Under the pieces are notes generated by a model. That model was not told the DNA's origin. It saw only the letters and a list, made by a program, of their open reading frames with translations, and did no database searches. The position numbers were made by a program, and so were the translations under genes. A stretch of DNA of 64,000 nt, taken from NCBI GenBank assembly GCA_000002445.1, contig CP000068.1, forward strand, positions 1,312,001-1,376,000, in the 5' to 3' direction. Source of the DNA: Trypanosoma brucei. Taxonomy: Eukaryota. Below, piece after piece: positions 4,711 to 32,933 of this stretch (positions are counted from its first letter, which is position 1; each line of letters starts with the position of its first letter).

Positions 4711-7227
4711 TTATGACTTTGTCTCGGTTGTTTGGCCCCCAAGCATCCCTTGCGCAGTGTTAAACAGGTTCACCGGCGTTTTTCCATCTGTGATCAAGTA
4801 GCCCTTCAACCCCAACCCACCGAGCAGTTTCGCTTGCATTTCGGGGCCGGCCTGTGCGATCGATACAAGCGTCTGTCTCCCAATGGCACTTACCATCCGT
4901 TGAATCCTCTCAACTTCCGTTTGGGCGAGCTCACGGGCCTTTACGATTTCCAGCTCGTTCTGACGCTTTGCAAACTCCAGCTCGAGATCTTGCTGTTGCT
5001 TTTGCTTTGCGAGGTCTGACGCCGCTGTGATACGGAGCGCTTTTGCCCTCATCTCCGCTTGCTTCAGCTCTGTGTCCGCCTCAATGAGAAGTGACTCCGC
5101 CTTCGCCTTCGCCTCCGCTACTGCCTGCCCACTCGCCTGAACAACCTCACTCTGCGCCTGCAGTTCAAGCCACTGTGTTTTGGTCCGCTCCACTTCAATT
5201 TTATCGACGAGTTTCTGTCGCTCAAGCCTTCCCCGAGCCTCCTGGTCCTTCCGCTCCTTCCCGTGCCGTGCCGCAGCCTCCTGGGATTTGGTCGTTATTT
5301 CTATGGCCAGCTGCACAGATTTCTGTAGACTGTCCCGCGTCTTCGCATCAGTGGGTTCCACTGATTGAATGTCAATGTTCGTTACGACGAGGTTGTTGGC
5401 AGAGAAGCGAAGTGAGTTCCTCACATGGCCATTGCCATCGCGACCAAACACAGCCTCACGAATTATCTTCGCAGAATTACGATGGAAAGAGTCAAAGTCC
5501 TCCGCAGCAACAGCCCCACGAACGCGAGACGCGATAGTTTTGCAGCAATCCCCAACAAAATCAGGCACGGAAAATATCTTGGCATCAGGATTCTCTCGAT
5601 TCACATCAAAATGCCAGTTATACGAAAGACTAAGTTGCAAACGTGCATGGTCAGAGGTTTCCACAACAATCGTGTCACTGGAGAAACGAGGACCCAAAAA
5701 GAGCTGTAGAGCGAGAAGCGAATTTAGTGCTTTTGGTTTTCCCCCACTGAGTGACAATACAGTAAACTCCTCATCGGGGGATAGCATAACAAGGTTCGGA
5801 CCGAGCACTACGCGAGGTTTCTTTTGCTTGTAATCATAAATCTGTACCGCCGCGTTGTGTTGAACGTTGAAGCGAATGATACGATGTTTCACACGCGAAC
5901 TGGTAAAGTTAGGATCCCGCTCACTGCAGCGGCAGCACCCCGTAGGGCATGCAAGAAGTTCTTCCACATCAGGAGAAAGATCCTTCTCCCATAGCACCTC
6001 GTGCTCCTTGAGCATGTAAGGCTCTCCGATAACAGTGCGGACTTCACCCGTAGTGGTGTTCATGACATAAATGCCTTCATTTTTGTCCAGTGCAATCACA
6101 CCTCGTCGCTCCAGCACGCAAACATCCACTCTAGGAATATACTCAGTGGCACCGCGGAGCAGCCATTTCTCACCCGGCATGCGAACAGTGCCGCCACAAT
6201 CCTCAAACTTTTCCAAAGCCTGCAAAAGTAGTGCCTCATTCTTCCCGATAGCGTTCATTGACTGAACCTCACCCACCAGACTCTCACCGGGCCTCAGGAA
6301 AAAGCTGCACTCCCCTTTGCGGACTTCTCTTTTACCGAACTGGTTGATGCCTTCATCTCCAACAGGGTCCTTAACGATACAGTACTGGTTCTTGCTTAAT
6401 ATAATGGCATTCACGGTGGCGGTGATTACCTCGTTTACATCAGGGATGTGCGTAGAGGACATTTTATGCGTAATCATCCACTGCTCTCCTGCTTTACGTG
6501 CTTTACCGTACACATCAGTAAAGTTGCGTAGAGCCCTTAGGTGGATTGCCTCCTTCTCAGTCAAAACAGCACCCCTAACGTAACTCACAAATTCCTCCTC
6601 GTATGCAGGAAGATAAGCACCACTGGTTCGATGCAGCCACTCTTCCCCAGCCACACGCGCAACGCCTTGTCGGTCAGTAAAGTTGAGCCGCGCCCGGAGC
6701 TTAATGGCAGTGTTTGATTCCACAGTAAGTGCCTCAACCTCCCCAAGCTCCTCCACTTCCACGCGGGGAATAAATGTCTGCGGGCCCTCCACAATCCATT
6801 GTTCACCCGCCCGCACTGACACCCGTGTACTATCGACAAAATCACGCGTACAACGAACATGGTAACCTTTGTTGGAGGGAATCACCTTTAACTTGAAGAG
6901 CCATTCCCCATCAACAGTTAAAAGCTCTTCCCCAGGCAATAGAGGGAACGGAGGTTGTTCAAATCGTATTTCTTTCTCGCCCATGCGTAACTGCACCTCC
7001 TCACTTTCCCCGACCTTTGGGATGTTGTCTTCGCCACGCACGCACGGGTTCTGCACAACACAATAGTGGCCTGGAGGCACCACGACACATTGCCGCGGTT
7101 CGAAAAGACATCGTTCGTGCTCCTTACGTGTGTACACCTGCGGCCCCAGCATACATTTAGTGACATTTGTGTTGTTGTTCAGCAAATGAACGTAAAAATG
7201 ACGTTTAATTCGTATGATATCACTCAT
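4711..7227 (-). CDS. MVP: Major vault protein (MVP)
   Basis: The 838-aa ORF starts [32 protein letters not shown], which matches the MVP N-terminus ([28 protein letters not shown]). It has multiple MVP repeat units ([59 protein letters not shown]). It also has the conserved shoulder/cap region ([40 protein letters not shown]) and a C-terminal coiled-coil. Confidence 0.9.
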
Positions 7228-8575: not shown

Positions 8576-11113
8576 TCAGTTGCCTCCACTCCCAACATGC
8601 CCAACGTTTCTACACAAGTCTCGAATTTTCTGGTCACGCTCTTGAAGTTCTCTATGCAGCTGCTCAACCTTCTCTCTATGTCCCGCTGTCATTCCGCGAA
8701 TCTGTTCCCTGTAGCTCGATTCAATCACATCTGCCTTGATCTGTATTTCCTTCAATCTTGCAGAAGACGAGATCATGTGGGAGCACTGGCTCCTCAGCCC
8801 CTTTGTTTGAGCCGAAAGATCTTCCTGGCGCCGTTCCAGGGTCACAATGGTGTCACGTAATTCGGAAGCGCGCAACGCAATCCTTTCCATTACGGTGTAC
8901 ATGTTGTTCAAGTGCATCACCATTTCAACCGGTGGGATTAACTGAAAGTGTGACTTAGCCTCCCGAACCTTGATGGTTAAAGAGCGAATAGAACCATCAA
9001 TTACCCCAAATTCCTCCTGTGCTGCCGAAATCGCTCTCTTCAGCGCCACACAACGACCCTCCATTCCTTTCAGCTCAGATTGAAATAAAAATTTGTTCAA
9101 ATCGCCTAAGGGGTCTGTCTCACAGACATCCGCATCCCCAGCATCGTTGAAAGACCTGTTCTTTAAGGTTTCCGCAAACACTTGGAAAAATTGGATGGGT
9201 TCCTTTTCATACGAGTTCTTTTCTGCATCAAAAAATGCAGTGGGGATCACACCCAGTTCTCGCACCACTAAAGCACCCAGTTCATGCTTCCGCGGACCAC
9301 ACCTCTCCCATACGGCTTGGGAAACCAGAATTTGCCCTCCGCGGGCCGTGGAGCACGCGTGTACAGTCTGAGATACCGCACGACCGTAATAGTGGCACCG
9401 GTAAGAATCGCCAACCGGTATAGACAGCGGCTCCACAAATGTATCACCTGTGTGAACCGCCATCGCCAGGCGCAGCCCACGAAATACCACTTCATTTGTC
9501 CCCTGACAACGCACCTCTGAGCCCCATGAGCTTTCGAGAAGGGACTGCGACCAAGGGAGCGTCATCAACCATTTTTGGGTCTCCGTGCAGAAACGACAGG
9601 CCGCTACCGGATCGTCGAAGGCGAGCAGCATTGATGTCCCATCACAGTAGCACTCATACGCACCGTACTGAGCCATTTTAGGGCGCAACACGCAGTTCAT
9701 CAAAGATACGGCAGCTTGTGCCTTTTCCGCATCCTCGACCCACATAAGGTCACCATTAAAGACGCGCAAGCATGCGAACACAACGTTCCTTTGGGGTGGG
9801 GGAACCGAACCGGAGTGCGATATGGCGTTCTCGAGATCATCACAGAAAAAATACAGTCGAGAAAGCGCACGATTTAAAGAAACTGATGCCTCAGAGCACT
9901 TCCCCTCAATCTCCACCAGCGCACGCGAAAGTCGCTCTTGCTTGGCATCGAGCTTCGCCAACAAACAGTCAAAATCTGATTCCTTCGAAACCGGCGCTTC
10001 ACAGTTGGTGTCTATGGTTTTCAGTTGTAGTAAGCGAGTAACAATTCGCTCAACCACCAGTTTTGCTTCTGGATCCTCGACAATACACCGTGGGGCGTAG
10101 AGGAGGGCGGCCTCCTGTACCTCCAAACTGTGAGGTTCAACAGCCTGCTCCGGGGCACAGCTAACAAACGCTGAGTAGATATCATCTAAGATGCGAAGAA
10201 TGTATATATCCCACTGCTTGAACCGCTGCTCTACTTCCTGAGAGGCCGCGTTTGCCAAAACGAGCCGCTCCGCGGCCGTCGCCGCCTCCTTCACAGCTTC
10301 TTCGCGCTCTTCAGATAGCTTCTTCTTTTCATCCTCCAGTCGCGCACGCATGTCACCGATGCGCCGCTCCGTTTCCGTAGACCTTTCCTTGTACTCAGAC
10401 TCAATGCGATGTACGAGGTTCTTCATAAGCGCCTGACCTTCGGTGTGACGCTCCTCCGCGACCCTGTTTGTAGCACGAACGGCCTCTAGCTCTTTTGTCA
10501 GCTCTTCTACACGAGCATTACAAAGGCTCTCCACATGGTCCAATTCTTGGGCGGCTGCTTTTTTAACATCATCCACCTGCTGTTGGTATATTTTTGTGAG
10601 GTTTTCAACGCGCTCATTGAGAACACGGCATTCGTTTTTCAACATCATCTGCTCCTTCTCGTGTTGCAACTTTTGCATGCGTAATTGATGCTCCATTGTT
10701 TCTTTGAGCTTGAGATGTTGCTCATTCTCACCCTTCAGCAGTCCCTCCAACCGCTTAACTTCGTCCCGTAGTTCGCCAATTTCCTCTTTAGATTTCTCAG
10801 TCATGGCGAACTCTATACACTTCGCCTCATGTTTCGCGTTCCCCAGTTTCGTCCGCAGTGACGAACACTTCCGCATCAGCGCCTCGATTTCCTTCTCTCT
10901 TAGTGCTATACTCATAACGTGACGCTGCTCAGCTGTTGTACGCCACGGTCGCTCCAATTCCGGTCGGTGAAAAAGTTCTTCACCCCGCTGTACCCCCGTG
11001 GCCGTTTTGAGGTATGTCCCGGGAGTACAACCGCCCCCATACACACCGACAGCTCGTGCAGCAGACGCTGACTCAGGGGTCTCCCACTTGTTGGGTGGTG
11101 CCTCGTCGGACAT
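8576..11113 (-). CDS. coiled-coil protein with a degenerate class III nucleotidyl-cyclase homology domain and no TM segment
   Basis: The six-frame ORF runs to 11245, but its first 44 codons look non-coding. The probable start is MSDEAPPNKWE, with cat at 11111-11113. The N-terminal half is long heptad coiled-coil. The central segment (about nt 9300-9800) aligns to the catalytic domain of the GRESAG4 genes in this window. Examples are CDGTSMLLAF against VGDSFMIACK, VFRGLRLAMAVHTGD against LRVRIGIHTGL, and YYGRAVSQTVHACSTARGGQILVSQAVWE against YYGKVTDMAARTESVANGGQVVLTQATYF. The metal-binding and transition-state residues appear substituted. Confidence 0.7.
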   Translation of the reverse strand: MSDEAPPNKWETPESASAARAVGVYGGGCTPGTYLKTATGVQRGEELFHRPELERPWRTTAEQRHVMSIALREKEIEALMRKCSSLRTKLGNAKHEAKCIEFAMTEKSKEEIGELRDEVKRLEGLLKGENEQHLKLKETMEHQLRMQKLQHEKEQMMLKNECRVLNERVENLTKIYQQQVDDVKKAAAQELDHVESLCNARVEELTKELEAVRATNRVAEERHTEGQALMKNLVHRIESEYKERSTETERRIGDMRARLEDEKKKLSEEREEAVKEAATAAERLVLANAASQEVEQRFKQWDIYILRILDDIYSAFVSCAPEQAVEPHSLEVQEAALLYAPRCIVEDPEAKLVVERIVTRLLQLKTIDTNCEAPVSKESDFDCLLAKLDAKQERLSRALVEIEGKCSEASVSLNRALSRLYFFCDDLENAISHSGSVPPPQRNVVFACLRVFNGDLMWVEDAEKAQAAVSLMNCVLRPKMAQYGAYECYCDGTSMLLAFDDPVAACRFCTETQKWLMTLPWSQSLLESSWGSEVRCQGTNEVVFRGLRLAMAVHTGDTFVEPLSIPVGDSYRCHYYGRAVSQTVHACSTARGGQILVSQAVWERCGPRKHELGALVVRELGVIPTAFFDAEKNSYEKEPIQFFQVFAETLKNRSFNDAGDADVCETDPLGDLNKFLFQSELKGMEGRCVALKRAISAAQEEFGVIDGSIRSLTIKVREAKSHFQLIPPVEMVMHLNNMYTVMERIALRASELRDTIVTLERRQEDLSAQTKGLRSQCSHMISSSARLKEIQIKADVIESSYREQIRGMTAGHREKVEQLHRELQERDQKIRDLCRNVGHVGSGGN

Positions 11114-11593: not shown

Positions 11594-13333
11594 CTACATC
11601 TCATATGGTATAAAGTGAACCTCGAGCGTCTTCTTCAGGCGGGAAACTTCATCTTCCGAAGAACGAAGCTCCTCTCGGCGCCGCGACTCACAAACACGCA
11701 AATCCTCCCGGAGTGCGTCAATTACCTCCTCTTGGTTGAAAATGCGGGCCTTCAGTTGTGTTTCAGTTTCAAGAGCCAGCTGCTCCCGCACCTCCATTTC
11801 GCGCGTCAGTTCAGAGATCTTCTCGGATAATATTGCTATCGTTCCCTCATGCGTCTCCACCTCCCCCTCGATCGTATTCCTGTGGGGGATGAAGTGCGCG
11901 TCAAGGAGGCGGCGCAGTCTCGCGATTTCCCCATCTTTCGCCGCCACTGCTGTATCGAGTGTGTTTTGGCTCCCTTGCAGTGTTGCTTGCAGCTGTAAGT
12001 GTTGTGATTTTAGCACTGCGATGTCTGAAAGAAGTTTCGCCTCCCGTTCTTTTGCCCCGTCCTTACTTTGTGCGACTAGCTGGCGCGCAGTGTCAAGTTC
12101 CCTTTCTTTCTCCTTTGCCTCTTCGGTCGTCCGCGATATTTCGATCTCATAAGCCCTTCGCTCGCTCAGAAGTTTTTGTTGAAGCTGGGAAGTGGCAGTC
12201 CGGTTATTGGCTATTTGGGCGTTAAGAAATGTTATTTTGTCGAAGTTTTCTCGTTCCTTCCGCCGCAACAAATGCTCAAGTTCCTCCATTCGTCTTTGAT
12301 TGCTCTCAAGCTCAACGAACGTGGCCTCCAACTCCTTTTCGAGTTTCTCCCTCTCGTTCTGCATCTCCTCGTTTTCCACAGCACGTTTTTCGTGGATGGT
12401 TTGTAGCTCTCCAGAGAGGTACTGCGAATCATGCTTGACTTGTTCCAATTGCTGCTTATAATCACGTAACACCACATCTGAGTTCATTTTTATGTCAGTG
12501 TTCTCTTTCTTCAATGCTTCTACCTCATCCTCGAACCGAGAGCACTTTGCCTCTAGCTGAAGGTACTTTTCCCTTTCGATGCTTGCCTGCCGCTGTTCCT
12601 CCTCAAGTTGCTCTTCGTAACGGCGTTTGTTTTCTTCAATTTGCGCATTGAGCATCTGCATCAAGGCGACATTTTTCCTGTCATCTGCCTCCCGTGTTTC
12701 TACAACCTCCTGCATCGAACGGTTCATCGATATTGCCTTTTCGAGTTCCCGTTGCAAACCAGCAATCGTCAACGCATGACTGCGTATCTCCCCCTCCTTC
12801 TCGTCCATACGCGCCTCCATTTTTATTCGGTACTCCGAATGATCCTCCTTCGCAACGCGCAGTTCTACACGGAGATTCTCATTATCGCACTCGATTGAAC
12901 TGATTGTTTTTTCAGTTTCTGCACGAAGATTGTTCAATTGCAACTCCGCTGTGTGCTTTTCCTGTACGAGAAGTTTCTGTTTCTCCTCCACCTCCAATCG
13001 CAACAGACCCACCTCATTCAGCAATGTGTCACGCATGAGCACTAATTGCTCAACCTGGACCTCGGATGCCATACGCTCCTCCCTTAACGTAGCAGTCAGT
13101 TGCTCCACCTTGGCCATGAGCTCCTTCACTTTTCCTTCCTTCTCACGGAGAATTCGAACCTGTTCCTCCTTCCACAGAGTTATGCGTTCCTCCTGCTCCT
13201 CTCGGTCACGGCGCTCATTCTCACGCTTCTGGATTTCCTCCCCCTCGGCTTCTTGTGCGCGGAGCTGTTGCATGCGGAGAATCTCCGCACTCACCTCCTT
13301 GTTACCCTTCTTCCTTCCCCTCTTCGGAGCCAT
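11594..13333 (-). CDS. hypothetical long coiled-coil protein
   Basis: The 579-aa ORF starts MAPKRGRKKGNK. It is almost entirely charged heptad repeats rich in E, K, R, L and Q, with no globular domain that I recognise. Confidence 0.6.
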   Translation of the reverse strand: MAPKRGRKKGNKEVSAEILRMQQLRAQEAEGEEIQKRENERRDREEQEERITLWKEEQVRILREKEGKVKELMAKVEQLTATLREERMASEVQVEQLVLMRDTLLNEVGLLRLEVEEKQKLLVQEKHTAELQLNNLRAETEKTISSIECDNENLRVELRVAKEDHSEYRIKMEARMDEKEGEIRSHALTIAGLQRELEKAISMNRSMQEVVETREADDRKNVALMQMLNAQIEENKRRYEEQLEEEQRQASIEREKYLQLEAKCSRFEDEVEALKKENTDIKMNSDVVLRDYKQQLEQVKHDSQYLSGELQTIHEKRAVENEEMQNEREKLEKELEATFVELESNQRRMEELEHLLRRKERENFDKITFLNAQIANNRTATSQLQQKLLSERRAYEIEISRTTEEAKEKERELDTARQLVAQSKDGAKEREAKLLSDIAVLKSQHLQLQATLQGSQNTLDTAVAAKDGEIARLRRLLDAHFIPHRNTIEGEVETHEGTIAILSEKISELTREMEVREQLALETETQLKARIFNQEEVIDALREDLRVCESRRREELRSSEDEVSRLKKTLEVHFIPYEM

Positions 13334-15860: not shown

Positions 15861-18641
15861 CTAATTCGATCTTTGCCTCTTTGCACCACAATTTCCCTCG
15901 TCACAGAGGTTTGAAATCAGGTTTGGTTCCCTCACACTTACTCTGCACAACGCAACTTCCATCTGTTGTATTTTCGCCTTGTCAACGGCTGTGATTTGTG
16001 CACCGGACTTTCTTGACATATCCTCTAGCATCCCCTTAAGTTGTTCAAAGCTCTTGATCCAGTAATTCACTTCTTCGTTGGCTCGATGTATCGCCTTCAT
16101 TGCCCAATCCTTTTCTTTAGCTCTGAAACATTCCGTTTCTTCGCGTTTAGCCTTTACTGCTTCCAGAGCCTTCTTATACTCTCCTTTGCGGGAAATTTCG
16201 TAGTCAAGCTTACTTCGGAGCTTCTGGGTTCTCTGCTCCAACTCGTCAACGTTACGCTTTTCAGTATCTAGTAAGCGGGAAAGCTCTCTCACCTGATCGT
16301 CTTTCTTCTGAATATCGGCAGCGTGCTGCCGCGATAGATCACTAATCTTCTCCATGAGGTTTTCACTGTTCTTTTCAGCTTTCTCCTTTTCATTCTCAGC
16401 GACGTTAATTTTCCTCGTAAGACCTTCCCTCTGCTCTACAAGAAGTTTCTCACTTCCCTCAACACGTGATTCGATTTCCCTCAACTTGAGCTCAAGGTGA
16501 GAACACATGTCCTCGGCGTTTCTTCGCACCTTTTCCAGGTGACTTAGTCTGCGCAGCAGTTCGTCGTTCTTGTTCGTGTATAACACACGATATTCCTCTG
16601 CCACAGCAAGCGTTTTCTCAACTGTCAGTGCGCTATATTGGTCAACAATATCTACAAAAAAACGTGAGAAGTGTTCTAACCAATTCGCCATCCACTGTGA
16701 CAATCTCATTCGGTCTTCAGAGTACAAAGTAGCCTCACGCAAAAGGTTTTCTGTTTCGATGAGTTTGTCAGAAAGAACCTTTTGGTTAGCGGTGCGGTCT
16801 TCATTATTGATATTCTCCCTTTCAATTTCTTTCCCCAGGAGAAAAAGTTGTTCTTTATCTCGTCGTGCACCCTCTTGGAGGTCTAGAATTTCTGCCTCCT
16901 TCGTCCTTAGTTCCTCAACCAATTCCTCTTTTCCCCGTATCAACGTACTTCTTTCAGCTTCCAAACGCAGCCGCGCCTCTGATAGACGTAATATCTCCGT
17001 ATCTTTTTGATGAGTCAACTCCTCAACTTTCTTTTTTAGTAAGTTTGTCTCCTCGTAGAAATGTGTCACTGCAGTATCGATATTGACGACAAGAATGCCG
17101 TGAATATCAAGGTTTTCATCAGCAGACTCTTTAGACAGACTCCACCTGGCAGCCTGTTCTTCGAGCTCAAGCACCTTTACCTGAAGCATGAAGTTATTCA
17201 GCTGCATTTCTTCAGTGGCAGAACGTAGCTGGGTAGAAAATTCAGAACTCTGCATAACCTTGCGATAGAGGTCCTCATTTCTTGCATTAGCTTCACCTAA
17301 CTGACCTGTCAACTTGTCAATTACCCCTCGTCTGGCGTCAATTTCAGACGTAAGATCTTTCGCCTCACGGCGCAGAGAATCAATTTTTTCTTCGTAATCC
17401 ACCCGCATGAGTACCAAATTTTCGTCCTTCGTATCCTGCATACTCTTCACTCGCTGGAATTCGGTCTCCAAGAAACTTTTTGCACTAACGACGCTCTCCA
17501 AATCCATCCTTGTTCGTTCGAGCGCACTTCGAAGCTCTTGAAGATTACTTTCCAATATTGCGGCTCTTCGGCTGCTATCGGTACGTTCTTGTTCAAGACG
17601 GTTCACATCAGCCTTCAGTTGACTGACAGACAGTTCATACTTCCGAGACTCAGCGCACTTCTCTATCACCTGATCGTTTAGCGCCGAAATCTTCGACCTC
17701 AATTCTACAATAACTTCTTGGTGTTTGGAAGAATTTTCAGAAGCATGCTCAAAATCACGACGCATTGTTTCCAGCTCCATCATAAGCAGCTTGTTTCCTT
17801 TTTCGGATTCTCGTAGGTCACAGTTTGCCTTTTCTACACGACCTTTTTCTTCAATGTTGATCAGTTTTGCCGCCTCGATTTGCTGGTTCAGTGTGGAGAC
17901 GGTGTTTTGCAGCTTCTCAATCGTGCTCTTCTGCATTCCTAACTGTACTTCGAGAGACTTTATCTCGTTGTCTTTCACATGACAAACCTCTTCCCACTTG
18001 GATTTTGCTTCCTCCAACTTGAAAACAGTTTCGTCGCGCGTATGCACATCGTTCTGCAATGCCTCGATACGGGAATGTAACAAAGTTATCTTCTTTTCCC
18101 CCTCGTGCGATAATGACTCCAATTTTGTTGTGTGGTCCTTCTCCCTCTGTAACTGCTTCTGAACTTCCTTCAGTGTGACGTTCAACTCCTTGAATTCATC
18201 CGCTAACTTCGAATAAGCAGTCCTTGATTCTTCAAGTTGTCTCTGAATGGTTTCGTTCTCGGTGATCCATTGTTTCTCTGCGTCGCACCACTTGGCTATA
18301 GAAGCATGAGCGTCACGACGAATTTGCTCCTTCTCACATTCAGCCCTAGCCGCGCGCTTCTGCTCAGCAACCAATGCAGATTGTTTTTCGGATAAGTCCT
18401 TTTGCAGGGTGTGACACCTCTCCTCTAATTTTCCCCGCTTCTTGTCGTCGTCCGTATGCATTAACTTTTCTCTACGTAGCTCAGCTTTGTCTTGTTCGAG
18501 AGTAGCTATCTGTGCTTGTTGTAACTTAACTTTTTCCTCAAGCTCACGAGTGTAAGCTTTCTCACGCTGCAGCTGAAACTCCAAATGTTTTTGGGTCCCT
18601 TTTAGCCCCTGTCTGGAATCACCTTTCGCAGGAGACTCCAT
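15861..18641 (-). CDS. hypothetical long coiled-coil protein
   Basis: The 926-aa ORF starts MESPAKGDSRQ. It is continuous heptad coiled-coil rich in E, K, L, Q and R, typical of kinetoplastid cytoskeletal or flagellar proteins. No enzymatic motif. Confidence 0.65.
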   Translation of the reverse strand: MESPAKGDSRQGLKGTQKHLEFQLQREKAYTRELEEKVKLQQAQIATLEQDKAELRREKLMHTDDDKKRGKLEERCHTLQKDLSEKQSALVAEQKRAARAECEKEQIRRDAHASIAKWCDAEKQWITENETIQRQLEESRTAYSKLADEFKELNVTLKEVQKQLQREKDHTTKLESLSHEGEKKITLLHSRIEALQNDVHTRDETVFKLEEAKSKWEEVCHVKDNEIKSLEVQLGMQKSTIEKLQNTVSTLNQQIEAAKLINIEEKGRVEKANCDLRESEKGNKLLMMELETMRRDFEHASENSSKHQEVIVELRSKISALNDQVIEKCAESRKYELSVSQLKADVNRLEQERTDSSRRAAILESNLQELRSALERTRMDLESVVSAKSFLETEFQRVKSMQDTKDENLVLMRVDYEEKIDSLRREAKDLTSEIDARRGVIDKLTGQLGEANARNEDLYRKVMQSSEFSTQLRSATEEMQLNNFMLQVKVLELEEQAARWSLSKESADENLDIHGILVVNIDTAVTHFYEETNLLKKKVEELTHQKDTEILRLSEARLRLEAERSTLIRGKEELVEELRTKEAEILDLQEGARRDKEQLFLLGKEIERENINNEDRTANQKVLSDKLIETENLLREATLYSEDRMRLSQWMANWLEHFSRFFVDIVDQYSALTVEKTLAVAEEYRVLYTNKNDELLRRLSHLEKVRRNAEDMCSHLELKLREIESRVEGSEKLLVEQREGLTRKINVAENEKEKAEKNSENLMEKISDLSRQHAADIQKKDDQVRELSRLLDTEKRNVDELEQRTQKLRSKLDYEISRKGEYKKALEAVKAKREETECFRAKEKDWAMKAIHRANEEVNYWIKSFEQLKGMLEDMSRKSGAQITAVDKAKIQQMEVALCRVSVREPNLISNLCDEGNCGAKRQRSN

Positions 18642-19644: not shown

Positions 19645-20680
19645 TCTTGCTTTTAATTACTATATGGAAAGATGAAGAAACACAATCAAGAAGTTTTATT
19701 CGAACGTTGCCACACGAAAAAAAAACAGGGTAATACATAAAGTAACTTGAACGATACAGCTACAGGCAATCATTAAGAAACTGAGGGAAGTCATTGTCAC
19801 AGCAATACTGTGGGACTTCCGTTCACTCGGAGCTCCAACCTAATGACGGAGACTCCAAGCTGAATCCGACTTCGATAAAATCATTACGACGGCTGCCCCT
19901 GCTACACAAAACAACTGCAAAATAAACTTTCACCATGCGTTGGATAGACACACCTGCATCCATCGATGTCCCCGACGGAAAGAGTCTAAATATCAGCATC
20001 ATGTATATTACCGCGAAAAAAGAAAAATGAGATCACCCCGGCCACATGAACAGAAGTAACCACAGATAACATATGCATCCCTCCGCCTCCTTGAAAACAG
20101 ACAAATCGTGAAACATACAGAAATTACACCAGGAAGCAGATGAACAGAACCACCAATAACGGTCCAGCTATTGTCAGAGTTGCACCACTTTGGTATGTAG
20201 GCATCATGGACCCTAACCCACTGAACGAATGCTACAATGAGTTTGTTATCACCTGCCGTCGACGACCCACTGAGGTTGCAGAATGTTTTAAGTGTCCACC
20301 TAAAGAAATGTTGAAGATTCAAACAAACACAGTGCTCTGATTCATATATTTGAACACGAAAAAAGATAGCGATATAATTAGAACGCCAACAATAGTCCAC
20401 TGTTACCACAATGAATTAGAAGACAACATAGTTTACACACGAGACAAATGCTTACAAACAAGCATATTTAATTAAAGGGCGTTGAGAAATGGGGAGCAGC
20501 AACAAACAATCACATACGAGCAAGCAACGACACTGTTTTGCTGTTTTTGTTTGGAAAAAATACCAACGTGAAGGTATTTCAAAAATGACAACGAAATGGG
20601 CACCAAACCACACGTATCCGCTACCGAAAGTCAAAAATAAGGTAAGGCGCACAATTTACAAGAAAATAAAATAAATAATT

Positions 20681-20720
20681 CACACACACATATATATATA
20701 TATATGTGTGTGTGTATATT
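20681..20720. repeat. (CA)n(TA)n(TG)n compound microsatellite in the strand-switch region
   Basis: cacacacacatatatatatatatatgtgtgtgtgtatat. Confidence 0.9.
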
Positions 20721-23700
20721 GAACTGTGACTCAATTAAAGGGAAATATATACTTTGAAAGACGAAAACACCGACTACTTGTAGCCATTAGCAATAACATA
20801 AATAACAGCGCCCATGACGCTACGCCCTACATCCAAAAGAGCAAGCAAAAAAAACAGTCACAAAAGACTAGTCACATCCAAGAAAGCCGAGTGGTTGTAA
20901 GAAACAACCGAAAATACACAAGCAGGCCTTTGAAGCTCCTCTTTTCAAAAAAAAAAAGGATTAAAGACGACAAGAATCACCAGGGCACACACAAATTGTT
21001 GTGGGGACGCAACCCGCAACCATCCCCCACCGCCACCTTGTGGTAGGAGTTCGCGCCAAAGCCCATCTCACAATATTTGGGAAGTCCAGCAGCTCTCAGG
21101 CGGTCGCTCCTCGACGCAAGACCCACTAACTCCGGTGGAGGCACCGCAGGAAGCCAGAGCGACCACACACACAAACACACAACCCACCACCTTTGGGACG
21201 CATGCCTCACAAGCCGAGGCGGGAGCTACACTAGCATCTCTAGCCTTTGACGCGCCAAACTTCTCCGTCGCACACCCGAGAGCATGTCACCTACACACGA
21301 TAAATAGCGAGGGACCCGCCAAGCAAACCCGCAAGGCCACCACCCAATGAAGAGTTTCAGCGGGCACACGCAGAAGGTCAAAATACCAAGCATGTTGGGA
21401 GGACCCCCGGCCGCGACGGCGTATGCCAACCCCCGCCACTGCGTCCAGACCAATACGCCTCGCGGAATAACGGAACCCAAGCAACTGGGACAAGAGCATA
21501 TATGATGGGGTGCGACTCGCTAGTGCGGGGTCGATTGCGTGGAATGAAAGGACTTCAAGGCGGGACCGAACCTAGACACCACTTCCCCAGATGCCGAACC
21601 TCGAGGATGCACAAGCAATCGTAAACAGGACGGCGACCACTGCTGAAGAACACTTGACTCCAACACTTGGTTATGGACGGATGGAATAACAACAAGTGTA
21701 TGCCCAATACTCCCAATCTTTCGGACAGTGCAGAACGGTGATGAATCACCCAATGGAAATAGAAAAAAAATGGAGAGAAGACTCCGCAAGTCAGCGAAGG
21801 CTATAAGCAGCATGGACGATAGTATAATCCCGACCCCCGGCCACTCCACGAGAACCATTCCTGGGGGAAAAAGCGACGCCGGTCGACGCGAGGCATCAAG
21901 TTCTCAGAATTTAGGATGAGGATAAAGAGGCATTGGGGAAGAAGGAGAAGCAATATCATCGTCATATCGGGGAAAAAACACAATATACGGAACCACCTCA
22001 ACAATCCAAAAGAGACTCATCCGAACATCTAGTGACGGAAGAAGGTTGCTGGGAATAATCGGCCTTAATGCTTGTCATGGGTTTATTGTCAATTCTGTGC
22101 TGCTCGCAAACGGCAAGATGCTGATAGAAGGAGCAGGGGTAGCGACCAACGGCAAATATGCGCCACCAACGACAGACAAAACTCTCAGATGCCCCGGTAA
22201 AGAACGTGCCAGAGGTTGAGAGGACGCGAAACTCAAACCGTTTCACACGCCGGAGCCGATTGTTGCCACAGGAAGATCGAAATTTCCTCCTTCTGCTGAA
22301 GAAAATGGCGTTTGTGGTGTACCAACTAAAGAACATGGAGGTAAACGGGCTAAACCACATGTAAAAACTACTCAACGGGAATCGAAAATACTGGGGAGCG
22401 TTGGGAAAGTGGAAGTGTGAAGCTGTTGAACTGGCGTTAAGGGAAAGCAAGGGGACTGCTGTCATGGCATCGTCAAAAACTAACAGCGCCCACCTGCGCC
22501 AATTACAAAGCAATGCAGTAGTTGGTCCAAAGGAGATTTGTGGATTCTGTTGACCGTTGGTTGCGTATACAAAAGGAAAAGGTTTCTGCGCCAACGTTCG
22601 GCAGCAGAATCCATAACTCAGTTGATTGGAGACGCAACTTCGTACGAACCGAATGTACTCAGCACGGTCAAGCTAACTCTACACTCGTGAGTTTGGACCC
22701 ATGGAGAGTGGTGACGCAATTCGAGTGCCTGAGAAGTTATCTCCTAACCTCCAAATTATGTGGTGGGTAAGAAACTTTCCACCAAACAAGATAGCGAGAG
22801 TCAGTACAAACCAACGAGTTTTGGGGAAATCTCACATGACCGTGCCGTGTGGCAAAAAGAACGGTGTCGGGCTCCATTTTATTCAAAATTATGACGAAGG
22901 GGCTGAGGGATCAACCGGACGGAATACTGGACATACAACGTTGTTTCTTTGTGGACTATATGATACTCGTACGCAGGAACCTGAACGGGTGAAACCTGGA
23001 GGTGCGCTACAACAACCGGTAGGCTACACCACCTCGTGGTTTCAAAGCCGTTTAAAGAGAGATCTGTGCAGAAAACTAAATACATTCCGCCTCTACTGGT
23101 GTTACGAAACCTACTAGGTACTATAGTGGTCAGTGAAAAAGATAGACAAGGCGGAGGCGCCGCATCTGCTGTGTCTCACCCTGCAATCTATCGGAAGAAC
23201 ACCAAAACGAACACAAAGGGTATCTGAGGAGTTAGGTGGGGGTGATGAAACCGTGCGCGGTATCCTCACCCTAGTGGAGCCAAGCGAAAAATTATTAGGG
23301 ACACTCAATTTGGGATTGATGCCAGCACTGCGAAAGCGCTTGAGAAAGACATGGTCAGTCTCCACGACCTCCAAATGATGAAAACACTGAAGGGAGGTCG
23401 CAGGGACGAGTGATGTCAAATGCGTCATGAAGGATGGTGAGGTTCTCCAACTTACGTAGGTTCTTTACCAAACATTACTGTAACGAGGATGAGAGAACCC
23501 TCAAATGTTCGTACAAATGTTTGGGGTGAAGAAACGAGGAAAAAGAGAATACACAAAGACGAATCCATACCGGAAACGGGAGAAAATGAGTATAGAACAT
23601 ATGTTGATAGATCCGCGCACCTCATTCATTGTTTCTTTTTTTGATAAACATGCTTGGGGAAACGGTTCTCGGGCCTAGAATGTGGAAAATTGCACCCCGC

Positions 23701-24449
23701 TGATGAGCACTGCCATGCTCACCGAACCCACATTATTTCTAACATTTGATGCCTTATTTTTTTTTTTTTGGCTTGACAGATCTCGAAACATCTCTATAAT
23801 TTATCTTCTTATTGAAAGCATCCAACATTAGCCCCCTAAACAGACTGAGGGGTCCTTGCCCCATAGAAACAAGTCCTGAATTTTAAAGGGTGAGTTCCTT
23901 GGATACTGTCCCCCATCAGTTTTGGGAATGCCTCACTTGCCTTTACCCGAATGCACCGCGTAAAAATTAGTGGACGTTGTGCATGATGATGACCGTTCTC
24001 TTTTTACACGCGATTGGGTTTTCAATGTACCCAATCACTATGTATGAAGCGTGCCACAACCATGTTTTGGTATCCGCGAATTTTTAACGCACAGCACTCT
24101 TCCGCTGCCAAGTAAGTCTCCTAAAATAGGCAGAAGACTACCATATCCTGGTGAAGCTTCTTCTCTAAGGCGATCCGCTTCGGCTCGGAGAGACCCCCAG
24201 TGTTCCATTGAGCTCCATGAATGACAGGACGAGGATTCCGTTCTACACCTCCCCTAAGTAGTAGTAGAAGCCTATGTATCCCAATCGAAGCGCGCTCGCA
24301 CGTGCGGAGGAGCAGTCTAATATATTTCTTCCCCCCTAAGTGCCGATACTGCTGCTTGCTCCTTCTCTGATCGCCGTCAGCTTCTTGCCCACCAAAATTA
24401 TCTCTGACAGGGTAGAATGCGGGCTATTGGCTTCCTTCTGGACGGAGCA

Positions 24450-24950
24450 CTAGACGCTGGCACCATGATGAGATGGGCGGTGTAGGCAGGGACGTTACTG
24501 TATCAGTTTCCGCGGCTACCCTTCACCCGTGTGCTTTGCGCGGGCGGTCGCTACACCGGCCCTTTTTATGTTATGCATTGACGGCCGGCCTCGGTAGCGC
24601 TCGTTCACTTGCTGCAGTGGAGCCCCGATGTGTTCCGCCGGCGCTGCCTCCAGCTGTGCTGTTACGGTGAAGTGGAGGGGCGCGTGGTTGGGTCGGCTTG
24701 GAGTTTTCGGGGGGTGCGCGCAGCACTTTCTTGTTCTCCGGCTGTGAGTGACTGGTTGGAGTCGGGGTTTTGCGGTGTAGGTATTTGCATAGTTCATCGG
24801 AGGCCCCGCGTGGCTATGGTGACGCGAACCTCTGGGCCCCCTGTCGGTTAGAGCGGTACCGTCTGGGAGGAGCCGCCCGCATTGTCTCGGTGGGGGCAAG
24901 GGCCCCTTCTTAACCACGTCTAAGGAGACGCAGTGGTTACTCGGCCGTCG
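24450..24950. other. GC-rich, G-skewed island inside the strand-switch region
   Basis: The local GC content is clearly above that of the surrounding AT/GT-rich sequence (GGGCGGTGTAGGCAGGGACG...GCGCGGGCGGTCGCTACACCGGCCC). ORFs overlap it on both strands (24473-24670 +, 24516-24917 -), which looks like a by-product of the GC richness. It could be a promoter element or an unannotated structured RNA. Confidence 0.4.
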
Positions 24951-27900
24951 CAGGTCGTGTGCCGCTATTGCATTGCTTGTTACTTTGTCCTTTCATGCGG
25001 TGAGAGGTGGATAATGCTACGCCTTACGGTGGGGTGTCGCTGCTTCGGAAGTCTATTCTGTTGATTGTTGTCGACGACTCAGCGAGTGGGCGTTTATTGT
25101 CGAAACATAAAGTGACTCTGCTGTCAGTGCTTCTGCTCGTGTATTTGCCGTTTCAGGTATGGTAACAGATGGAACTGACTGTCATATTCCCGCGTCAGGG
25201 GAACAAGCTGTAACTTCGCGTTCGGGCGCTGTATTCCATGTTTTAGTTGTCGTAACATGTTTGTATATGCTTGTATGTGTTACGTGTTCATCATTCAGGT
25301 TTCGCCTCGAACCATCGGTTGCTGTCTAGGGGTCGCATCTCCGCTTTACTCGACAACTCTCTATTGTTCGGTAGCAAAGAGTGGACTGGGATGGTCTTCG
25401 TGATCGGGCTGTTAATTGCTTAGGCACGCCTCGAAGTTACAGCAGACGAGATAGTGAGATGAGGTGTGTGTGCTGTGTCTTACTGATGTGTGCAAGGGAT
25501 TTGTGCTAAACAAAAAAATATATGTACTAATTCAGGTAATATTACCTACTCGAGCATTGCGATTTGGGTGAGATTGCTGCGGATGAATTTGTTGTCGCAC
25601 TTTACTTGGAGGAGTTTCCGGAAACTGTCTGTTCCAAAGTTGTTTTCTCTGCAGTAAAAGGTGGAGGATCCTTGTACCTACAGGTCCGATGCGGCTGTTC
25701 AGAACGTTTGTAGCCCAATGGGCTTCGTCCAGCAACACAGTGTAGAAACGAATAGCATGTTGTCCCTCCATCTGGTCAACACGAAAGCCATACCCCGCGT
25801 TTCTGCCTCGGTGCTGAGATAGTGCGGTCATGCGTTACGCAATATGAGATATGCCCGTTTTTAAAATTATGAATGTCCTCGATAAGATAATCACTCGATT
25901 GTATCGCTCGTGTGGCCGCTGGCGATGGATGCCAAGATTCCCTACTGGACCTTCAAATAGTAATATAAGAAGCTCACTGGACCGTATTGGGGGCAACGAA
26001 GATATCTTGTATCAGGGAGGATATGGGTTTGTTAACACGCGCGATTTCACAATCCTTCTACCAAACCGAAGCGTCGTGAAGCTGATTTCCCCAAACAACA
26101 GTGGATGATGTTCAACTTAAAGCTCTCTCTGTCTCATTACCGCTATCTGTGTTCAATGAGCGGTGTCATCTGTGCTGTGGCTATGTTACCTGTGTAATCA
26201 TACCACCTGATGGTACGGAGTTCGTACGCACATCCTCATGCTGGATGTACCTGTTGGTATTGGAACGTTTTTGTGACAAATGCAGGGGGGGGCTTGCTAA
26301 ACCTCTATATGATCTCCCTCTCCATGTTACGGGATATTTTTAGATTAATGGTACATGAAAAGTGAGGTAAGAGCCTTTGGAGTTCACAACAAATCGTTTC
26401 TTTCAAAGTTCCAATACTACTTAATTGCATTCCGTAAAAATAAAAATTCGTTTTTCGTATAAACTATTAGGTTTTAGTGTGTGGGTGTGTATGGGGAGAG
26501 CGAAGCATTTTGTGTAGCGACTTTAAGAAAAACTTCAGGTAAATGGGCATACAGTATGTTGGAAAGAGAATATCGGCCTTCGAAAAGGCTCTTCAATAGT
26601 GTTAGTTCTTTCACTCACCTTTTCCTTTGTTGGTAGAACTGGTGATTCCAAGTTGAATAGTTGTAGACGGATGTTTGAAGTGTATTTACATATTCCCTTT
26701 GGAGTTTCTGTGGGTGTGTGAGGTTTCTGGCATTCTGAAACCACACATTAGGTGGTTAATTACGTTAAAGCAGCATCCGGCCGATGCGATTGTCCACCAC
26801 AGAAATTCTAAGGCGTAATGTGGTGGTGGAGTGTTGGCTGCTAGACGGCGTTTCGGCCTTTGTTTGATGTTTGCAACCTCGTTGGTGTGGGAAAGGGCGT
26901 GTGAGTGACACATATCCCTTGAATTATATATTTTTTGCCGTCCGCATTATCTCCGCTACGCGTTGCATGCACACCCGTGTGGTGTTTATTTTTTTTTATG
27001 TTGTGTTATATAATAATGGTGGTTTCTGACGAGTTTGTTGTTTGTAGTGTGACCCTTAATTTTTCTTAGATCACGATTTTTTGACAACATTCCGAAGAAC
27101 AATTACTCCCTTACCGCACATACTTCATTACTGATTGAATCCACTCCAAGCTATCAAAACGATACGCAAATATGTGTGTGGAATTTGTTTTGTGTGTTGT
27201 GGCTTTCTGCGGTGTCAGGTTCACAGGTTTCTAAAACTTCGTTCGTGGGAGCGTTGCGTCGTCAGAAAGTTCGCATTGATCCAAGTGAAGTGTGGGGTTT
27301 TGTTGATGATATGTAGGTTGTATTTTTGGCTCTAACAAATACTACCTTTCATTTTTGTTAGGTATTTGTTCGGCCAATTAAACGACGATGCTATTGCAGT
27401 CTGTACCTCACACCCACTTCTTTACCCCTAGTTGCATTTAAGAGCCCAGTGCTTGTAGACCAGACAACAGGTCCCATTTTGACGAGAAACAAGTCGTTAG
27501 TGATTTTTTTTTGTGTGGGACTACCCGTGAATTTTGGAAGAGAGGATAGTTAATGCCTCACTGTTAGAGTTGGTTCTGTTGCATTCTGGAGCAGCCCTGT
27601 TTTGTCAATTCTTCCATTTCCTTCCTGCAGTTATCGTTTTTGTCTGTTCAATTATCCGACGCAGCTGTTCGTTCACGGTCCTTCAATATATAAATATATA
27701 TATATGAAGTAACATACTTTTGAGGATGTACTTTGCTGCTTCGAATCATCTGCATGTTAGGCATGCTTTTTCACATGTTCTCTATTTCGTTCGTGGAGGA
27801 ACGAAGCTACCTTTTCCTCTTTAGCAGCACAGTTCAAAGCCAAGTGAGAAAATACGCATTAAAATACAAAACCCATTAGAAAGCAGCTGAAAACGAAAAG

Positions 27901-29100
27901 TACACCTTTGTGCCTCTGCTGATGGTCACATTATTCTTCACATTTACTGATAGTTCAATTTTATTATTGTGGTGTGATTGCAGGTGAAGCACCCCTTCAA
28001 GCCATTTTATGAGTGATTACACGGAAAAAAACATTATTAACACCAAATTGAGGGAAAAACCTGTGTGTGCCGTACCCTTCAGTGGCTGTACCATCCACTC
28101 TTGATTTGGTAGTGTAGTGGGTATAAAAAGAGTATTTATGACTAATTTCCACTCAACGTATTTCTTGGGTGGTTAAATTTATTTATTTTTCTTTGGACTG
28201 TATTTGTGGCTTCACGTCAATCTTTATTTTTAGCAGAGGACGCAACGAGAACTTGGTCTGGTTCGGAAGAAGATGTTTTTCTCCTACTTGTGGCTGTGCT
28301 TTTTGAGATATTGAAGTTTTTTCTTTTCAAAGATTGAGATGAGGAAATTTATTGCAAACAATGTTTAACATTCTGAAAGGTTATTTTGTTCATCTTTCCG
28401 GAAAGGGGAAGAGTGATTTTGGCCCTTAATCGACCGTGCTTGTGCTCCCAATGGGCGGATGATAGCAAAAATAAGAGACTTATGTTAAGAAATCATGAGA
28501 GGTGGTTCGAAGAAGAAGTTGAAAGTGACTAACTCATTTAAACGATGGAGCTGCTACACATCCTCTCATATCATGTTTTGTAGATGTCAGAGGGTGCATG
28601 TTACTTGATAGAACGTGAATACACTGAAACCTTTAAGCTTCTGTTTGAGGCATCGGAGAACGGCGTGGTTATAGGATCCTCTGTAATTCGCGGGGTACCA
28701 GTAACAAAAACGTTCGGTTCCATTGCCTCAAGCTTGTTACATACAATACTCGAATACCATTTCAAGGAAGTAAATGCCTCACTTGTCAAAATATACTTCG
28801 TGTTGAACCTTTTCCCTTTCCCCTTGGTGGATGCTTGTTCTTCAAAAGGGATATCGCGGGACGTATGCTTGGTTTTATGTTAGTTTGTGCGGTGTACGGA
28901 AATATCTAATATGGAATATGTCGCCCTCTTTGGCATTGTTCCCATTGTTATTTTGTTTACGCGGTTGCGCATTTTGTCTGATTCCTTGTCAACCTTAGTA
29001 CTGTATTTTCCTTTAGTTCCTGCAGCAACATTTGTGTGTGTGTGTGTGTGTGGCATTGATTCATTATGGTACACTGTGTGTTGGTTGAGCATTCTTCGTT

Positions 29101-29150
29101 TTAGTTGGTGTCTGCGTTTTGTTTGGGATTGTTTACTTTGTTCTTTGTAG
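29101..29150 (+). promoter_or_regulatory. polypyrimidine tract with AG; candidate trans-splice acceptor region for the first GRESAG4 copy
   Basis: ttgtttgggattgtttactttgttctttgtAG lies about 50 bp upstream of the ORF. The same element is present upstream of copy 2 at about 35636-35685. This is the usual kinetoplastid SL-addition signal architecture. Confidence 0.45.
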
Positions 29151-29201
29151 GACGTTTAGTTTACCTGTTTCACTAGCAGTACCGGCCAAAGTTTCCAAAT
29201 T

Positions 29202-32200: not shown

Positions 32201-32933
32201 GCGCCTCGACCCCGAAGTGTACCGGTCTCTCTGGAAAGGTCTACGCGTACGTATCGGGATACACACCGGACTGTGCGAAATCCGACAAGATGAAGTGACG
32301 AAGGGCTACGACTACTACGGGAAGGTGACAGACATGGCCGCGCGGACGGAGAGCGTTGCGAACGGTGGCCAGGTAGTACTGACGCAAGCAACGTACTTTG
32401 CACTGAGCACAGCAGAGCGTGAACAGTTCGATGTGGTCTCCCTTGGCCGCATACCACTTGCTGGTGCGCCCCAACCTATGGAAGTATACCAGTTGAACGC
32501 GGTGCCCGGCCGTACCTTCGCTGCTCTTCGCCTTGACCGCGAGTTTGGCGACGACTTTGAAGATAGAATGAGTACCTCCACTGGAGACTCGAGTTCTCTC
32601 CGTAGCGGGATGAATGGAACAACGCAGATGATTGCAAGTTGCCTGCAGGCTGTGCTAGGCACTTTCACTGCAGCACAGCGACAGAAACTGCTGGTGCCTT
32701 TGTGCGAACGGTGGCGTGTCACGCTTCCCAGGACCGCACAGCTAACATGGGACGAGGGCTTTTGTGAAGATGTGATTCGTCGGATTTCAGTCAAGGTCGG
32801 TCGTGTCGTTGACCTCTGTGCAAACAGCGGTGGTGAGCGTACCGTCAGTACGCTGAGAAGTGCGTCTGTGATTATAATGTCGAACCGGCTTCGGGAATTT
32901 GAGGCAGAGGCAACCCAGAGCCCTGAAGCTTAG
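29202..32933 (+). CDS. GRESAG4: Receptor-type adenylate cyclase (GRESAG4 family), copy 1
   Basis: The 1243-aa ORF has a probable signal peptide (MSSLSLLLVFLVVVMPPVEA; the true start is likely at about 29307). It has a large extracellular domain and a single TM (LAGVIVGVLFILLLLVALLLVLLCL). The C-terminal class III cyclase catalytic domain carries LIFTDVESST, KTVGDSFMIA, GLRVRIGIHTG and YYGKVTDMAARTESVANGGQVV. Confidence 0.9.
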   Translation: MISIHQSILFGRDVSRVRMENSPVPCINQFRCRLTMSSLSLLLVFLVVVMPPVEALDNITVKVYSLLYHPFVGRRLIDSMNAGFNASMAARQWTVAPGINVEVIHPASYRIPGPRFLQRAINDNKDEFFVVVGPMGDGQLAASRSFLQKENLVAFAPSTGASSVRGWSPNIYFLRVSPTVELIALMRFAVTHLRLLRIGFMYLQGLTFGDSEYEVAIKLMSHLGRELCGVFTVASSHGKGAADSDFDAVWDKFVVTRPQGVIMFAPPAKDVVRFVVKMLNDSRTQDAYFLASSVLELTIASWSGNIEAANTALDLGQIVLSRTNPLATDTQYQAIRRFQDDARSYLSANPGVTLFSGADDFEHHYVDGKLMVYGWIVGEVLSQALRSRAWIKDRETFKKSLYSQRRYVVDELVFGDFGGECEGTAGKRGAVCNCNQGGNVVYINVARRDNVLEVIHDGQVVVDSSLCYHDEVRLHSPVNGLLVFMQDDPVAQNAAEEIYDGAIPLTGDGRLGRTDRFFLHMLTSETAEASSELESELGTRAVTAVFGVADDAMLSLQTTAFIDPISLLPGLPHRGRKVIYLSPTLEQQLFALVKYFVGSGSTVVHAVVCRGDVVSIERLLYLMLMTFGGHMGTVVGPDSSTDLEGSMPETGDVLVIGLSKDDVAVVASHLDRNPDVRVAVLFFDVALLYIEFVKAFKSSSSGGRLLFATSLPHWAEANSTSATVQKFHAAVPDSPRWTPLSLLGFATGRFIQTLLFHMDKVTPDSIINAIYTLSVVNSDDMRYGPFVEERCPSTKDAPEGGDHFCGKNYGARRLSVWSMDRALNASVAPLTSGATPSLVYIDPYSKVLSGGRLAGVIVGVLFILLLLVALLLVLLCLRRSARDNDSAPKEPADPVTLIFTDVESSTAQWAAHPELMPDAVAAHHRLIRSLITHYRCYEVKTVGDSFMIACKSAFAASSLAQGLQQRFLSADWGTSAFDESYREFEQQRADDDNEYKPPSARLDPEVYRSLWKGLRVRIGIHTGLCEIRQDEVTKGYDYYGKVTDMAARTESVANGGQVVLTQATYFALSTAEREQFDVVSLGRIPLAGAPQPMEVYQLNAVPGRTFAALRLDREFGDDFEDRMSTSTGDSSSLRSGMNGTTQMIASCLQAVLGTFTAAQRQKLLVPLCERWRVTLPRTAQLTWDEGFCEDVIRRISVKVGRVVDLCANSGGERTVSTLRSASVIIMSNRLREFEAEATQSPEA

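Follow-up and report, generated by a model that had tools for sequence, protein, structure and literature searches.

Cyclic AMP (cAMP) signaling in trypanosomes relies on dozens of receptor cyclases and few known effectors, and uses tightly confined flagellar microdomains for social motility, transmission and immune evasion. Class III cyclases have composite active sites to which both subunits contribute; the catalytic dimer of guanylate cyclases is preceded by a coiled coil. The most complete survey of kinetoplastid cyclases, a large phylogenetic study performed with a receptor cyclase query and a BLAST cutoff of 1e-20, recognizes the receptor and oxygen-sensing classes only (PMC7719234). Here, we analyzed Tb927.5.4470 of Trypanosoma brucei, which is located in a stretch of 64,000 nucleotides (contig CP000068.1 of GCA_000002445.1, positions 1,312,001 to 1,376,000 of the forward strand; hereafter, the window). 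The gene is a complete coding sequence for 845 amino acids (aa; 95.8 kDa) on the minus strand at window positions 8576-11113, and its product would not pass the cutoff of the survey. What is new is a fully degenerate class III cyclase domain within a helical protein that is found across kinetoplastids and sits at the flagellar base. Degenerate cyclase-fold domains as a concept and the localization of Tb927.5.4470 in the TrypTag project were already known, and because of this we regard the result as meriting a modest follow-up rather than as a major surprise.

The ESAG4/GRESAG4 receptor cyclases (PDB 1fx2 and 1fx4) have a single transmembrane helix ahead of the catalytic domain. Compared with them, Tb927.5.4470 has no transmembrane segment, has lost all catalytic residues and carries helices on both sides of the cyclase domain. 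The periplasmic-binding-protein-like ectodomain (PF25493, PF25495 and PF13458), present in both GRESAG4 copies of the window, is not present in Tb927.5.4470. The oxygen-sensing adenylate cyclases of Leishmaniinae (OAC/HemAC) are also soluble kinetoplastid proteins with a cyclase-type domain; however, they combine a globin domain with an active cyclase, whereas Tb927.5.4470 has no globin match and is predicted to be catalytically dead. OACs are absent from Trypanosoma and Bodo (PMC7719234), but the family of Tb927.5.4470 is present in both. Mammalian membrane adenylate cyclases (C1/C2) and soluble guanylate cyclase (alpha/beta) resemble Tb927.5.4470 in keeping an incomplete cyclase-fold subunit for dimerization and regulation, and chains of the latter enzyme were among the top structural matches of the Tb927.5.4470 domain. 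In these enzymes each subunit holds one half-set of residues and a single active site is formed, whereas both half-sets are gone in Tb927.5.4470. Thus, under the composite-site model, no pairing of this domain would give an active site.

The central 210 residues of Tb927.5.4470 are a true homologue of the catalytic domains of class III adenylate/guanylate cyclases and have the same fold. BLASTP aligned aa 458-657 with aa 909-1117 of the GRESAG4 copy at window positions 29202-32933 (E 3e-9, 24% identity). A profile of 14 orthologues retrieved the GRESAG4 catalytic domains from the PDB (1fx4_A, E 5.6e-13; 1fx2_A, E 1.2e-12). Comparison by hhalign with 61 catalytic domains, 60 of which have all seven canonical residues and one of which is the window GRESAG4, gave a probability of 100% and an E value of 2.8e-43 over 215 columns. 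The AlphaFold2 model of aa 425-665 (predicted local distance difference test (pLDDT) 80.9; predicted template modeling score (pTM) 0.81) showed the strand and helix order of cyclases, with the beta-alpha-beta-beta-alpha-beta palm-like fold. Foldseek returned 1fx2 as the top PDB match of this model (E 1e-11, template modeling score 0.70), followed by many class III cyclases.

An earlier note, made from the sequence of the window, had proposed that the segment at about 9300-9800 aligns with the GRESAG4 catalytic domain and had suggested a structural model and Pfam PF00211 as checks. The similarity and the fold were borne out by the above analyses, but the bounds had to be redrawn to those of the degenerate cyclase homology domain (pseudo-CHD) in Table 1. 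PF00211 gave no significant score (E 0.16; 11.9 bits against a cutoff of 21.9), and 14 of 14 orthologues also fell below the cutoff. Formally, this result contradicts the proposal; it is outweighed by the more sensitive profile, profile-profile and fold comparisons, and Pfam was therefore dropped as a judge of homology. The pseudo-CHD is better conserved across orthologues (mean majority fraction 0.74, 29% invariant columns) than the flanking helices (0.62-0.72) and, judging from the alignment, appears to be under purifying selection.

All seven canonical catalytic residues are substituted in Tb927.5.4470, and the hhalign register was unambiguous. The FTD motif, which bears the first metal-binding Asp (Asp 1), aligned to C448-L449-R450, and the GDS motif, which bears the second (Asp 2), aligned to G492-T493-S494. 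Loss of these residues and of the transition-state pair, here S581 and H585, had been claimed before and agrees with our alignment, in which neither a metal Asp nor an Asn/Arg pair is kept. The purine-specifying Lys and Asp, in place of which GTP-using enzymes have Glu or Cys, and the phosphate-binding Arg are additionally lost (Y489, H574 and A550). The motif TDMAARTES of the window GRESAG4, which had served as the N...R reference, has Asp and not Asn at the transition-state position. In the AlphaFold2 model, every substituted position lies on the secondary-structure element expected of its canonical counterpart: R450 (model residue 26) is at the end of strand 17-27, T493 (model residue 69) is between strands 61-66 and 70-75, and H574, S581 and H585 (model residues 150, 157 and 161) sit in strand 150-152 and helix 154-165. 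Because all seven residues are replaced, no cAMP synthesis by the known mechanism is expected. The domain is almost certainly a pseudoenzyme that cannot cyclize by the known two-metal mechanism.

The protein is listed as 'hypothetical protein, conserved' in NCBI and carries the automatic names 'adenylate cyclase' or 'Guanylate cyclase domain-containing protein' in UniProt. The UniProt names overstate the capacity of the sequence, and Pfam-based annotation misses the domain altogether. It is very improbable that Tb927.5.4470 is still an active cyclase using non-canonical residues, such as the invariant E487, D491 and D501. The automatic name 'adenylate cyclase', which UniProt gives to the T. 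brucei protein, and the presence of several invariant acidic residues near the beta2-beta3 turn would favor such activity, but all seven canonical residues are gone, and E487 is present in canonical domains too and is not compensatory. To our knowledge, no class III cyclase works without both metal Asp residues. D491 was considered as a shifted metal ligand and rejected, because canonical domains are also acidic at that column, mostly with Glu (e.g., KTEGDAF).

We examined the distribution of the protein. The first search found one match per species in T. congolense, T. vivax, T. grayi, T. theileri, T. melophagium, T. conorhini, T. cruzi, T. rangeli and Angomonas, and two fragments in Strigomonas. 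The named trypanosomatid orthologues share 40-61% full-length identity with the T. brucei protein. When the domain profile was used in an exhaustive HMMER search, 3,478 proteins were retrieved at E <= 0.001; within the best 150 of these, the proteins of matching length and domain position also bear an N-terminal GEELFxRPxLxRPWR motif. We define the family here by this motif, followed by long helices, a degenerate cyclase domain at approximately aa 420-700 and C-terminal helices, an arrangement that Tb927.5.4470 shares. Members were also found in Leishmania (Mundinia) species, in Bodo saltans (annotated as 'guanylate cyclase, putative') and among several environmental sequences. The motif is carried by 28 sequences, 27 of which have a scoreable cyclase-like domain. 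A Phytomonas fragment of 380 aa, which lacks the N-terminus, matches by the domain alone and was the sole return of a word-indexed domain-alignment search. From Trypanosoma to B. saltans, a single gene was found in each named kinetoplastid genome with a match. As members are present in both B. saltans and the trypanosomatids, the family is older than the bodonid/trypanosomatid split.

It is extremely improbable that the pseudo-CHD is a decaying, functionless relic. The loss of catalytic residues and the failure of Pfam to recognize the domain would be expected of a relic, but the reading frame is intact, the identity among trypanosomatid orthologues extends over the full length, and Leishmania (Mundinia) and B. 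saltans still show the same architecture and N-terminal motif. In addition, conservation is higher in the domain than in the flanks, and the protein is expressed and specifically localized, as described below.

None of the named orthologues, from Trypanosoma to B. saltans, has a canonical residue at any of the seven positions. The metal-Asp columns of these orthologues are hypervariable (G/F/S/C/R/T/A at Asp 1 and T/A/V/L at Asp 2), indicating no constraint on metal binding. Of the 27 members that carry the motif and have a scoreable domain, none keeps Asp 1, and one environmental lineage of the family retains Asp 2 and the Asn. The Lys column is Y/F in the named orthologues (trypanosomatids and B. 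saltans), and environmental members differ at the Asp 2 and Lys columns. H574 is invariant in trypanosomatids and Bodo, and S581 and H585 predominate with few exceptions. Four former catalytic positions therefore display a new conserved pattern, namely Y/F, H, mostly S and mostly H.

Degenerate cyclase-like and GGDEF domains of bacteria act as non-catalytic nucleotide sensors. By analogy, the pocket of the pseudo-CHD could bind ATP, cAMP or a similar purine nucleotide and report it to the flagellar base, and the non-random occupation of its former catalytic positions is consistent with such a role. A class III cyclase-like domain that binds ATP is found in a transcriptional regulator of Pseudomonas aeruginosa (PDB 6yii), although it is bacterial, belongs to another domain context and is a distant structural match with 12% identity. 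Both metal Asp residues and the phosphate-binding Arg are gone, and the Asp columns vary freely, which makes canonical Mg-triphosphate binding unlikely. We consider a sensor function unlikely.

Phylogenetic analysis was performed with 70 domains. In the distance tree, the pseudo-domains grouped together in 62 of 100 bootstraps and the receptor cyclase domains in 97 of 100, and the two groups were exclusive sisters in none. The pseudo-domains share 26% identity with receptor cyclase domains and 28% with other cyclases. A recent duplicate of a receptor cyclase was therefore rejected as the origin of the domain, with the reservation that a distance tree is weak phylogenetics; Tb927.5.4470, present as one gene per named genome, does not appear in this tree as a derived receptor-cyclase paralogue.

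The top-scoring relatives outside the family are multi-domain cyclases of diplonemids (P0017 of Hemistasia phaeocysticola, with five domains) and environmental proteins. Against the pseudo-domain profile, the best single domain of these proteins scored 105 bits, compared with 44 bits for the window GRESAG4. They share an L..R.F domain tail and a PW/LL motif with the Tb927.5.4470 family; however, they have three to six tandem domains, mostly with the full D-K-D-R-D-N-R set (81 domains), and do not have the GEELFxRPxLxRPWR motif. Some of the tandem domains of P0017 and of the environmental P0019-P0035 are degenerate. Proteins of this type appear to represent a euglenozoan multi-cyclase architecture.

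The localization of Tb927.5.4470 has been reported by TrypTag (PMC9981465, supplementary data). The protein was annotated as 'flagellum[proximal,end]' with the N-terminal tag and as 'transition zone[75%]' with the C-terminal tag, and was listed among six 'Inversin-like' proteins within the proximal/distal flagellar subdomains. This label describes a position and not homology to inversin. TZP103.8, a member of the same class, sits just distal to the basal plate. These data indicate that procyclic cells express Tb927.5.4470 and that it is located at the base of their flagellum, and the earlier suggestion of a scaffold in the flagellum fits the published localization.

In the searchable literature, Tb927.5.4470 (Tb05.45E22.820, Q57Z02) is named in the main text of no paper. 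A search for 'pseudo-cyclase' with Trypanosoma returned nothing on the subject, and two papers on cAMP or cyclases contain no description of the gene. It was not found in the supplementary tables, where available, of studies on the CARP3 complex, axoneme asymmetry and structure-based annotation, and the main text of a 2026 preprint on the basal plate does not mention it.

We considered whether the domain is an inhibitory partner that pairs with GRESAG4-type catalytic domains, for example to silence cyclases as they pass the flagellar base. As both half-sets of residues are gone, any heterodimer would be without a complete site, and the effect could only be inhibitory. The fold is shared, and among solved structures the nearest is the domain of a T. 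brucei receptor cyclase; 1fx2 and 1fx4 are titled as structures of the monomeric state, leaving room for another partner. Both Tb927.5.4470 and the receptor cyclases are flagellar. All kinetoplastids sampled, Bodo among them, have receptor cyclases (PMC7719234), so that both families co-occur. On the other hand, helices flank the domain on both sides and favor self-association, and neither the bootstraps nor the identities given above bring the domain closer to receptor cyclases than to other cyclases. Tb927.5.4470 is missing from the available supplementary tables on the CARP3 multi-cyclase complex, it is single-copy in each named genome with a match while receptor cyclases number from one to dozens, and gene proximity in T. 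brucei is uninformative. Taken together, an inhibitory partner is improbable.

A broader form of these ideas is that the dead domain is a dedicated silencer or checkpoint of cAMP synthesis at the flagellar base, acting by capture of receptor cyclase domains or by sensing nucleotide. Cyclases captured just distal to the transition zone would then stay inactive until they reach their membrane subdomains. If true, this would be a pseudoenzyme-based way for kinetoplastids to confine cAMP microdomains; we regard it as quite unlikely.

The remainder of the protein was analyzed by hydropathy, heptad scoring and AlphaFold2. The maximum 19-residue Kyte-Doolittle mean was 1.31, compared with 3.6 for the transmembrane helix of GRESAG4, in agreement with the claim that the protein has no transmembrane segment. 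The full-length model (pLDDT 69) placed the domain at aa 445-647, with low confidence at aa 1-59, and predicted helices at aa 60-213 and 223-318, shorter ones within aa 329-366, and helices at aa 381-421, 669-720 and 729-841. The N-terminal coiled coil of approximately 450 aa proposed in the earlier note was thus confirmed as a helical region, but the helices lie on both sides of the domain, at aa 60-421 and 669-841. The helices within aa 60-318 consist of approximately 45% E/K/R/D/Q, show only a partial heptad signal and gave weak PDB profile matches to coiled coils. The heptad score of helix aa 381-421 exceeded the 95th percentile of shuffled sequences, the threshold of this crude test, in 100% of windows; the corresponding values were 89% for aa 669-720 and 62% for aa 729-841. 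Invariant residues ahead of the pseudo-CHD in the orthologue alignment are W301, Y313, P321, LY338-339, DP347-348 and ERI355-357.

Conservation within the protein is highest in the motif at aa 30-60 (mean majority fraction 0.91, 61% invariant columns). It has no Pfam match and corresponds to no known family, and AlphaFold2 modeled it with low confidence as mostly non-helical. It was found in 28 of 28 family sequences and is the signature of the family.

We propose, with a probability of roughly 60%, that at the flagellar base Tb927.5.4470 acts as a non-catalytic scaffold or binding module dimerized through coiled coils. The helices nearest the pseudo-CHD, which have the clearest heptad pattern, would align two chains in parallel, and the dead domains would pair head to tail in the manner usual for cyclases. 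Such a complex may have a structural or docking role at the flagellar base. Candidate binding surfaces are Y/F489, H574, S581, H585, the FVEP..IP..SYR.HYYG arm and the N-terminal motif. Several points weigh against this proposal. We infer the parallel homodimer from the architecture alone, and the helices at aa 60-318, with their weak heptad signal, could be single alpha-helices. The newly conserved His and Tyr residues in the former pocket could equally mean ligand binding and not a purely structural role. The localization comes from one high-throughput tagging study, in which the C-terminal signal was annotated in 75% of cells, and no searchable paper reports phenotype, interaction or binding data for the protein. 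The core claim of the earlier note, namely that the protein is soluble and helical/coiled-coil and contains a cyclase domain that is catalytically degenerate, held in every test that we performed except Pfam.

Since the kinetoplastid survey knows two classes only and its cutoff misses Tb927.5.4470, a third cyclase-fold family would add a new candidate component of cAMP signaling or of the poorly understood compartment beside the transition zone. The features of the gene are summarized in Table 1.

Table 1 Features of Tb927.5.4470 in window coordinates.
Feature	Position (nt)	Strand	Basis
Degenerate class III cyclase homology domain (pseudo-CHD), aa 440-650	9164..9796	-	BLASTP, profile, hhalign, AlphaFold2, Foldseek
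R450 (CGC) in place of metal Asp 1 (FTD), end of beta1	9764..9766	-	hhalign
Y489 in place of purine (adenine)-specifying Lys	9647-9649	-	hhalign
T493 (ACA) in place of metal Asp 2 (GDS), beta2-beta3 turn	9635..9637	-	hhalign
A550 (GCG) in place of phosphate-binding Arg of the RxGIH strand, beta4	9464..9466	-	hhalign
H574 in place of purine (adenine)-specifying Asp (beta5); S581/H585 in place of transition-state Asn/Arg (helix alpha4)	9359..9394	-	hhalign
N-terminal motif, aa 30-60, PGTYLKTxTGVQRGEELFxRPxLERPWR	10934..11026	-	Orthologue conservation
Long charged helices, aa 60-213 and 223-318, coiled-coil-like or single alpha-helix	10160..10936	-	AlphaFold2
Conserved helical middle region, aa 319-421, ending in helix 381-421 just upstream of the pseudo-CHD	9851..10159	-	AlphaFold2
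C-terminal helices, aa 669-720 and 729-841, heptad periodicity (coiled coil)	8591..9109	-	AlphaFold2

The mechanically determined open reading frame (ORF) of Tb927.5.4470 reaches further upstream, to a GTG at 11245. We placed the start at the ATG at 11113, as all orthologues start there in the alignment and the TrypTag N-terminal tagging primer supports it; the N- and C-terminal primers together encode exactly both termini of the 845-aa protein. The protein is 100% identical to T. brucei TREU927 XP_845117.1/Q57Z02, and T. equiperdum TEOVI_000208000 is also identical. The neighboring ORFs are MVP1 (Tb927.5.4460, 4711-7227) on one side and the paraflagellar rod protein PAR4 (Tb927.5.4480, 11594-13333) on the other, both confirmed by TrypTag primers. 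At the T. cruzi locus, the order of a 580-aa ORF (with the size and position of PAR4), the orthologue and MVP is kept, and in Angomonas the orthologue and MVP remain adjacent.

The GRESAG4 pair lies 18 kb from Tb927.5.4470, separated by four ORFs and a strand switch, and belongs to a different transcription unit. No cyclase was found within 10 kb on either side of the orthologue locus in T. cruzi or Angomonas. Gene proximity was rejected as functional evidence because of this distance, the strand switch, polycistronic transcription and the absence of cyclases near the T. cruzi and Angomonas loci. The sign of the GC skew changes near 22 kb of the window. The divergent strand-switch region, at approximately 19645-29201 (9.5 kb), contains no ORF of at least 200 aa, tRNA, Rfam match or tandem repeat, and scans of the window for tRNAs, Rfam families and tandem repeats gave nothing relevant.

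Both GRESAG4 copies have Asp (GAC, aa 1044; motif YYGKVTDMAARTES) at the position of the transition-state Asn (32331-32333 and 38866-38868, plus strand). Among the other trypanosomatid receptor-cyclase domains retrieved (n = 26), this position is Asn in 25 and Ser in one. The catalytic competence of both window copies may be reduced, to judge from this substitution, and given the Asp their description as 'active' is an assumption. The two genes (29202-32933 and 35737-39468, plus strand) are a tandem duplicate, 6,535 nt apart. Only 8 of the 1,243 residues differ between their products. All 8 lie in the extracellular region that binds the ligand (aa 304-513), and the transmembrane and catalytic parts are identical.

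A second tandem pair is located at 44566-47028 and 51639-54095 on the plus strand and encodes proteins of 820 and 818 aa that are 91% identical and have no Pfam match. In each, a signal-like segment lies at the N-terminus and a transmembrane helix at the C-terminus, and there is a stretch rich in Asn/Thr; nearly all differences fall in aa 60-300. The pair looks like surface glycoproteins diversifying in the distal domain.

Upstream of PAR4, a 926-aa protein is encoded at 15861-18641 on the minus strand. It has no Pfam match, and its length and position are conserved in T. cruzi (L001, 1822-4602). The Angomonas counterpart (885 aa) has a weak match to CCDC39, a hint that this gene cluster may also include an axonemal ruler-type protein.

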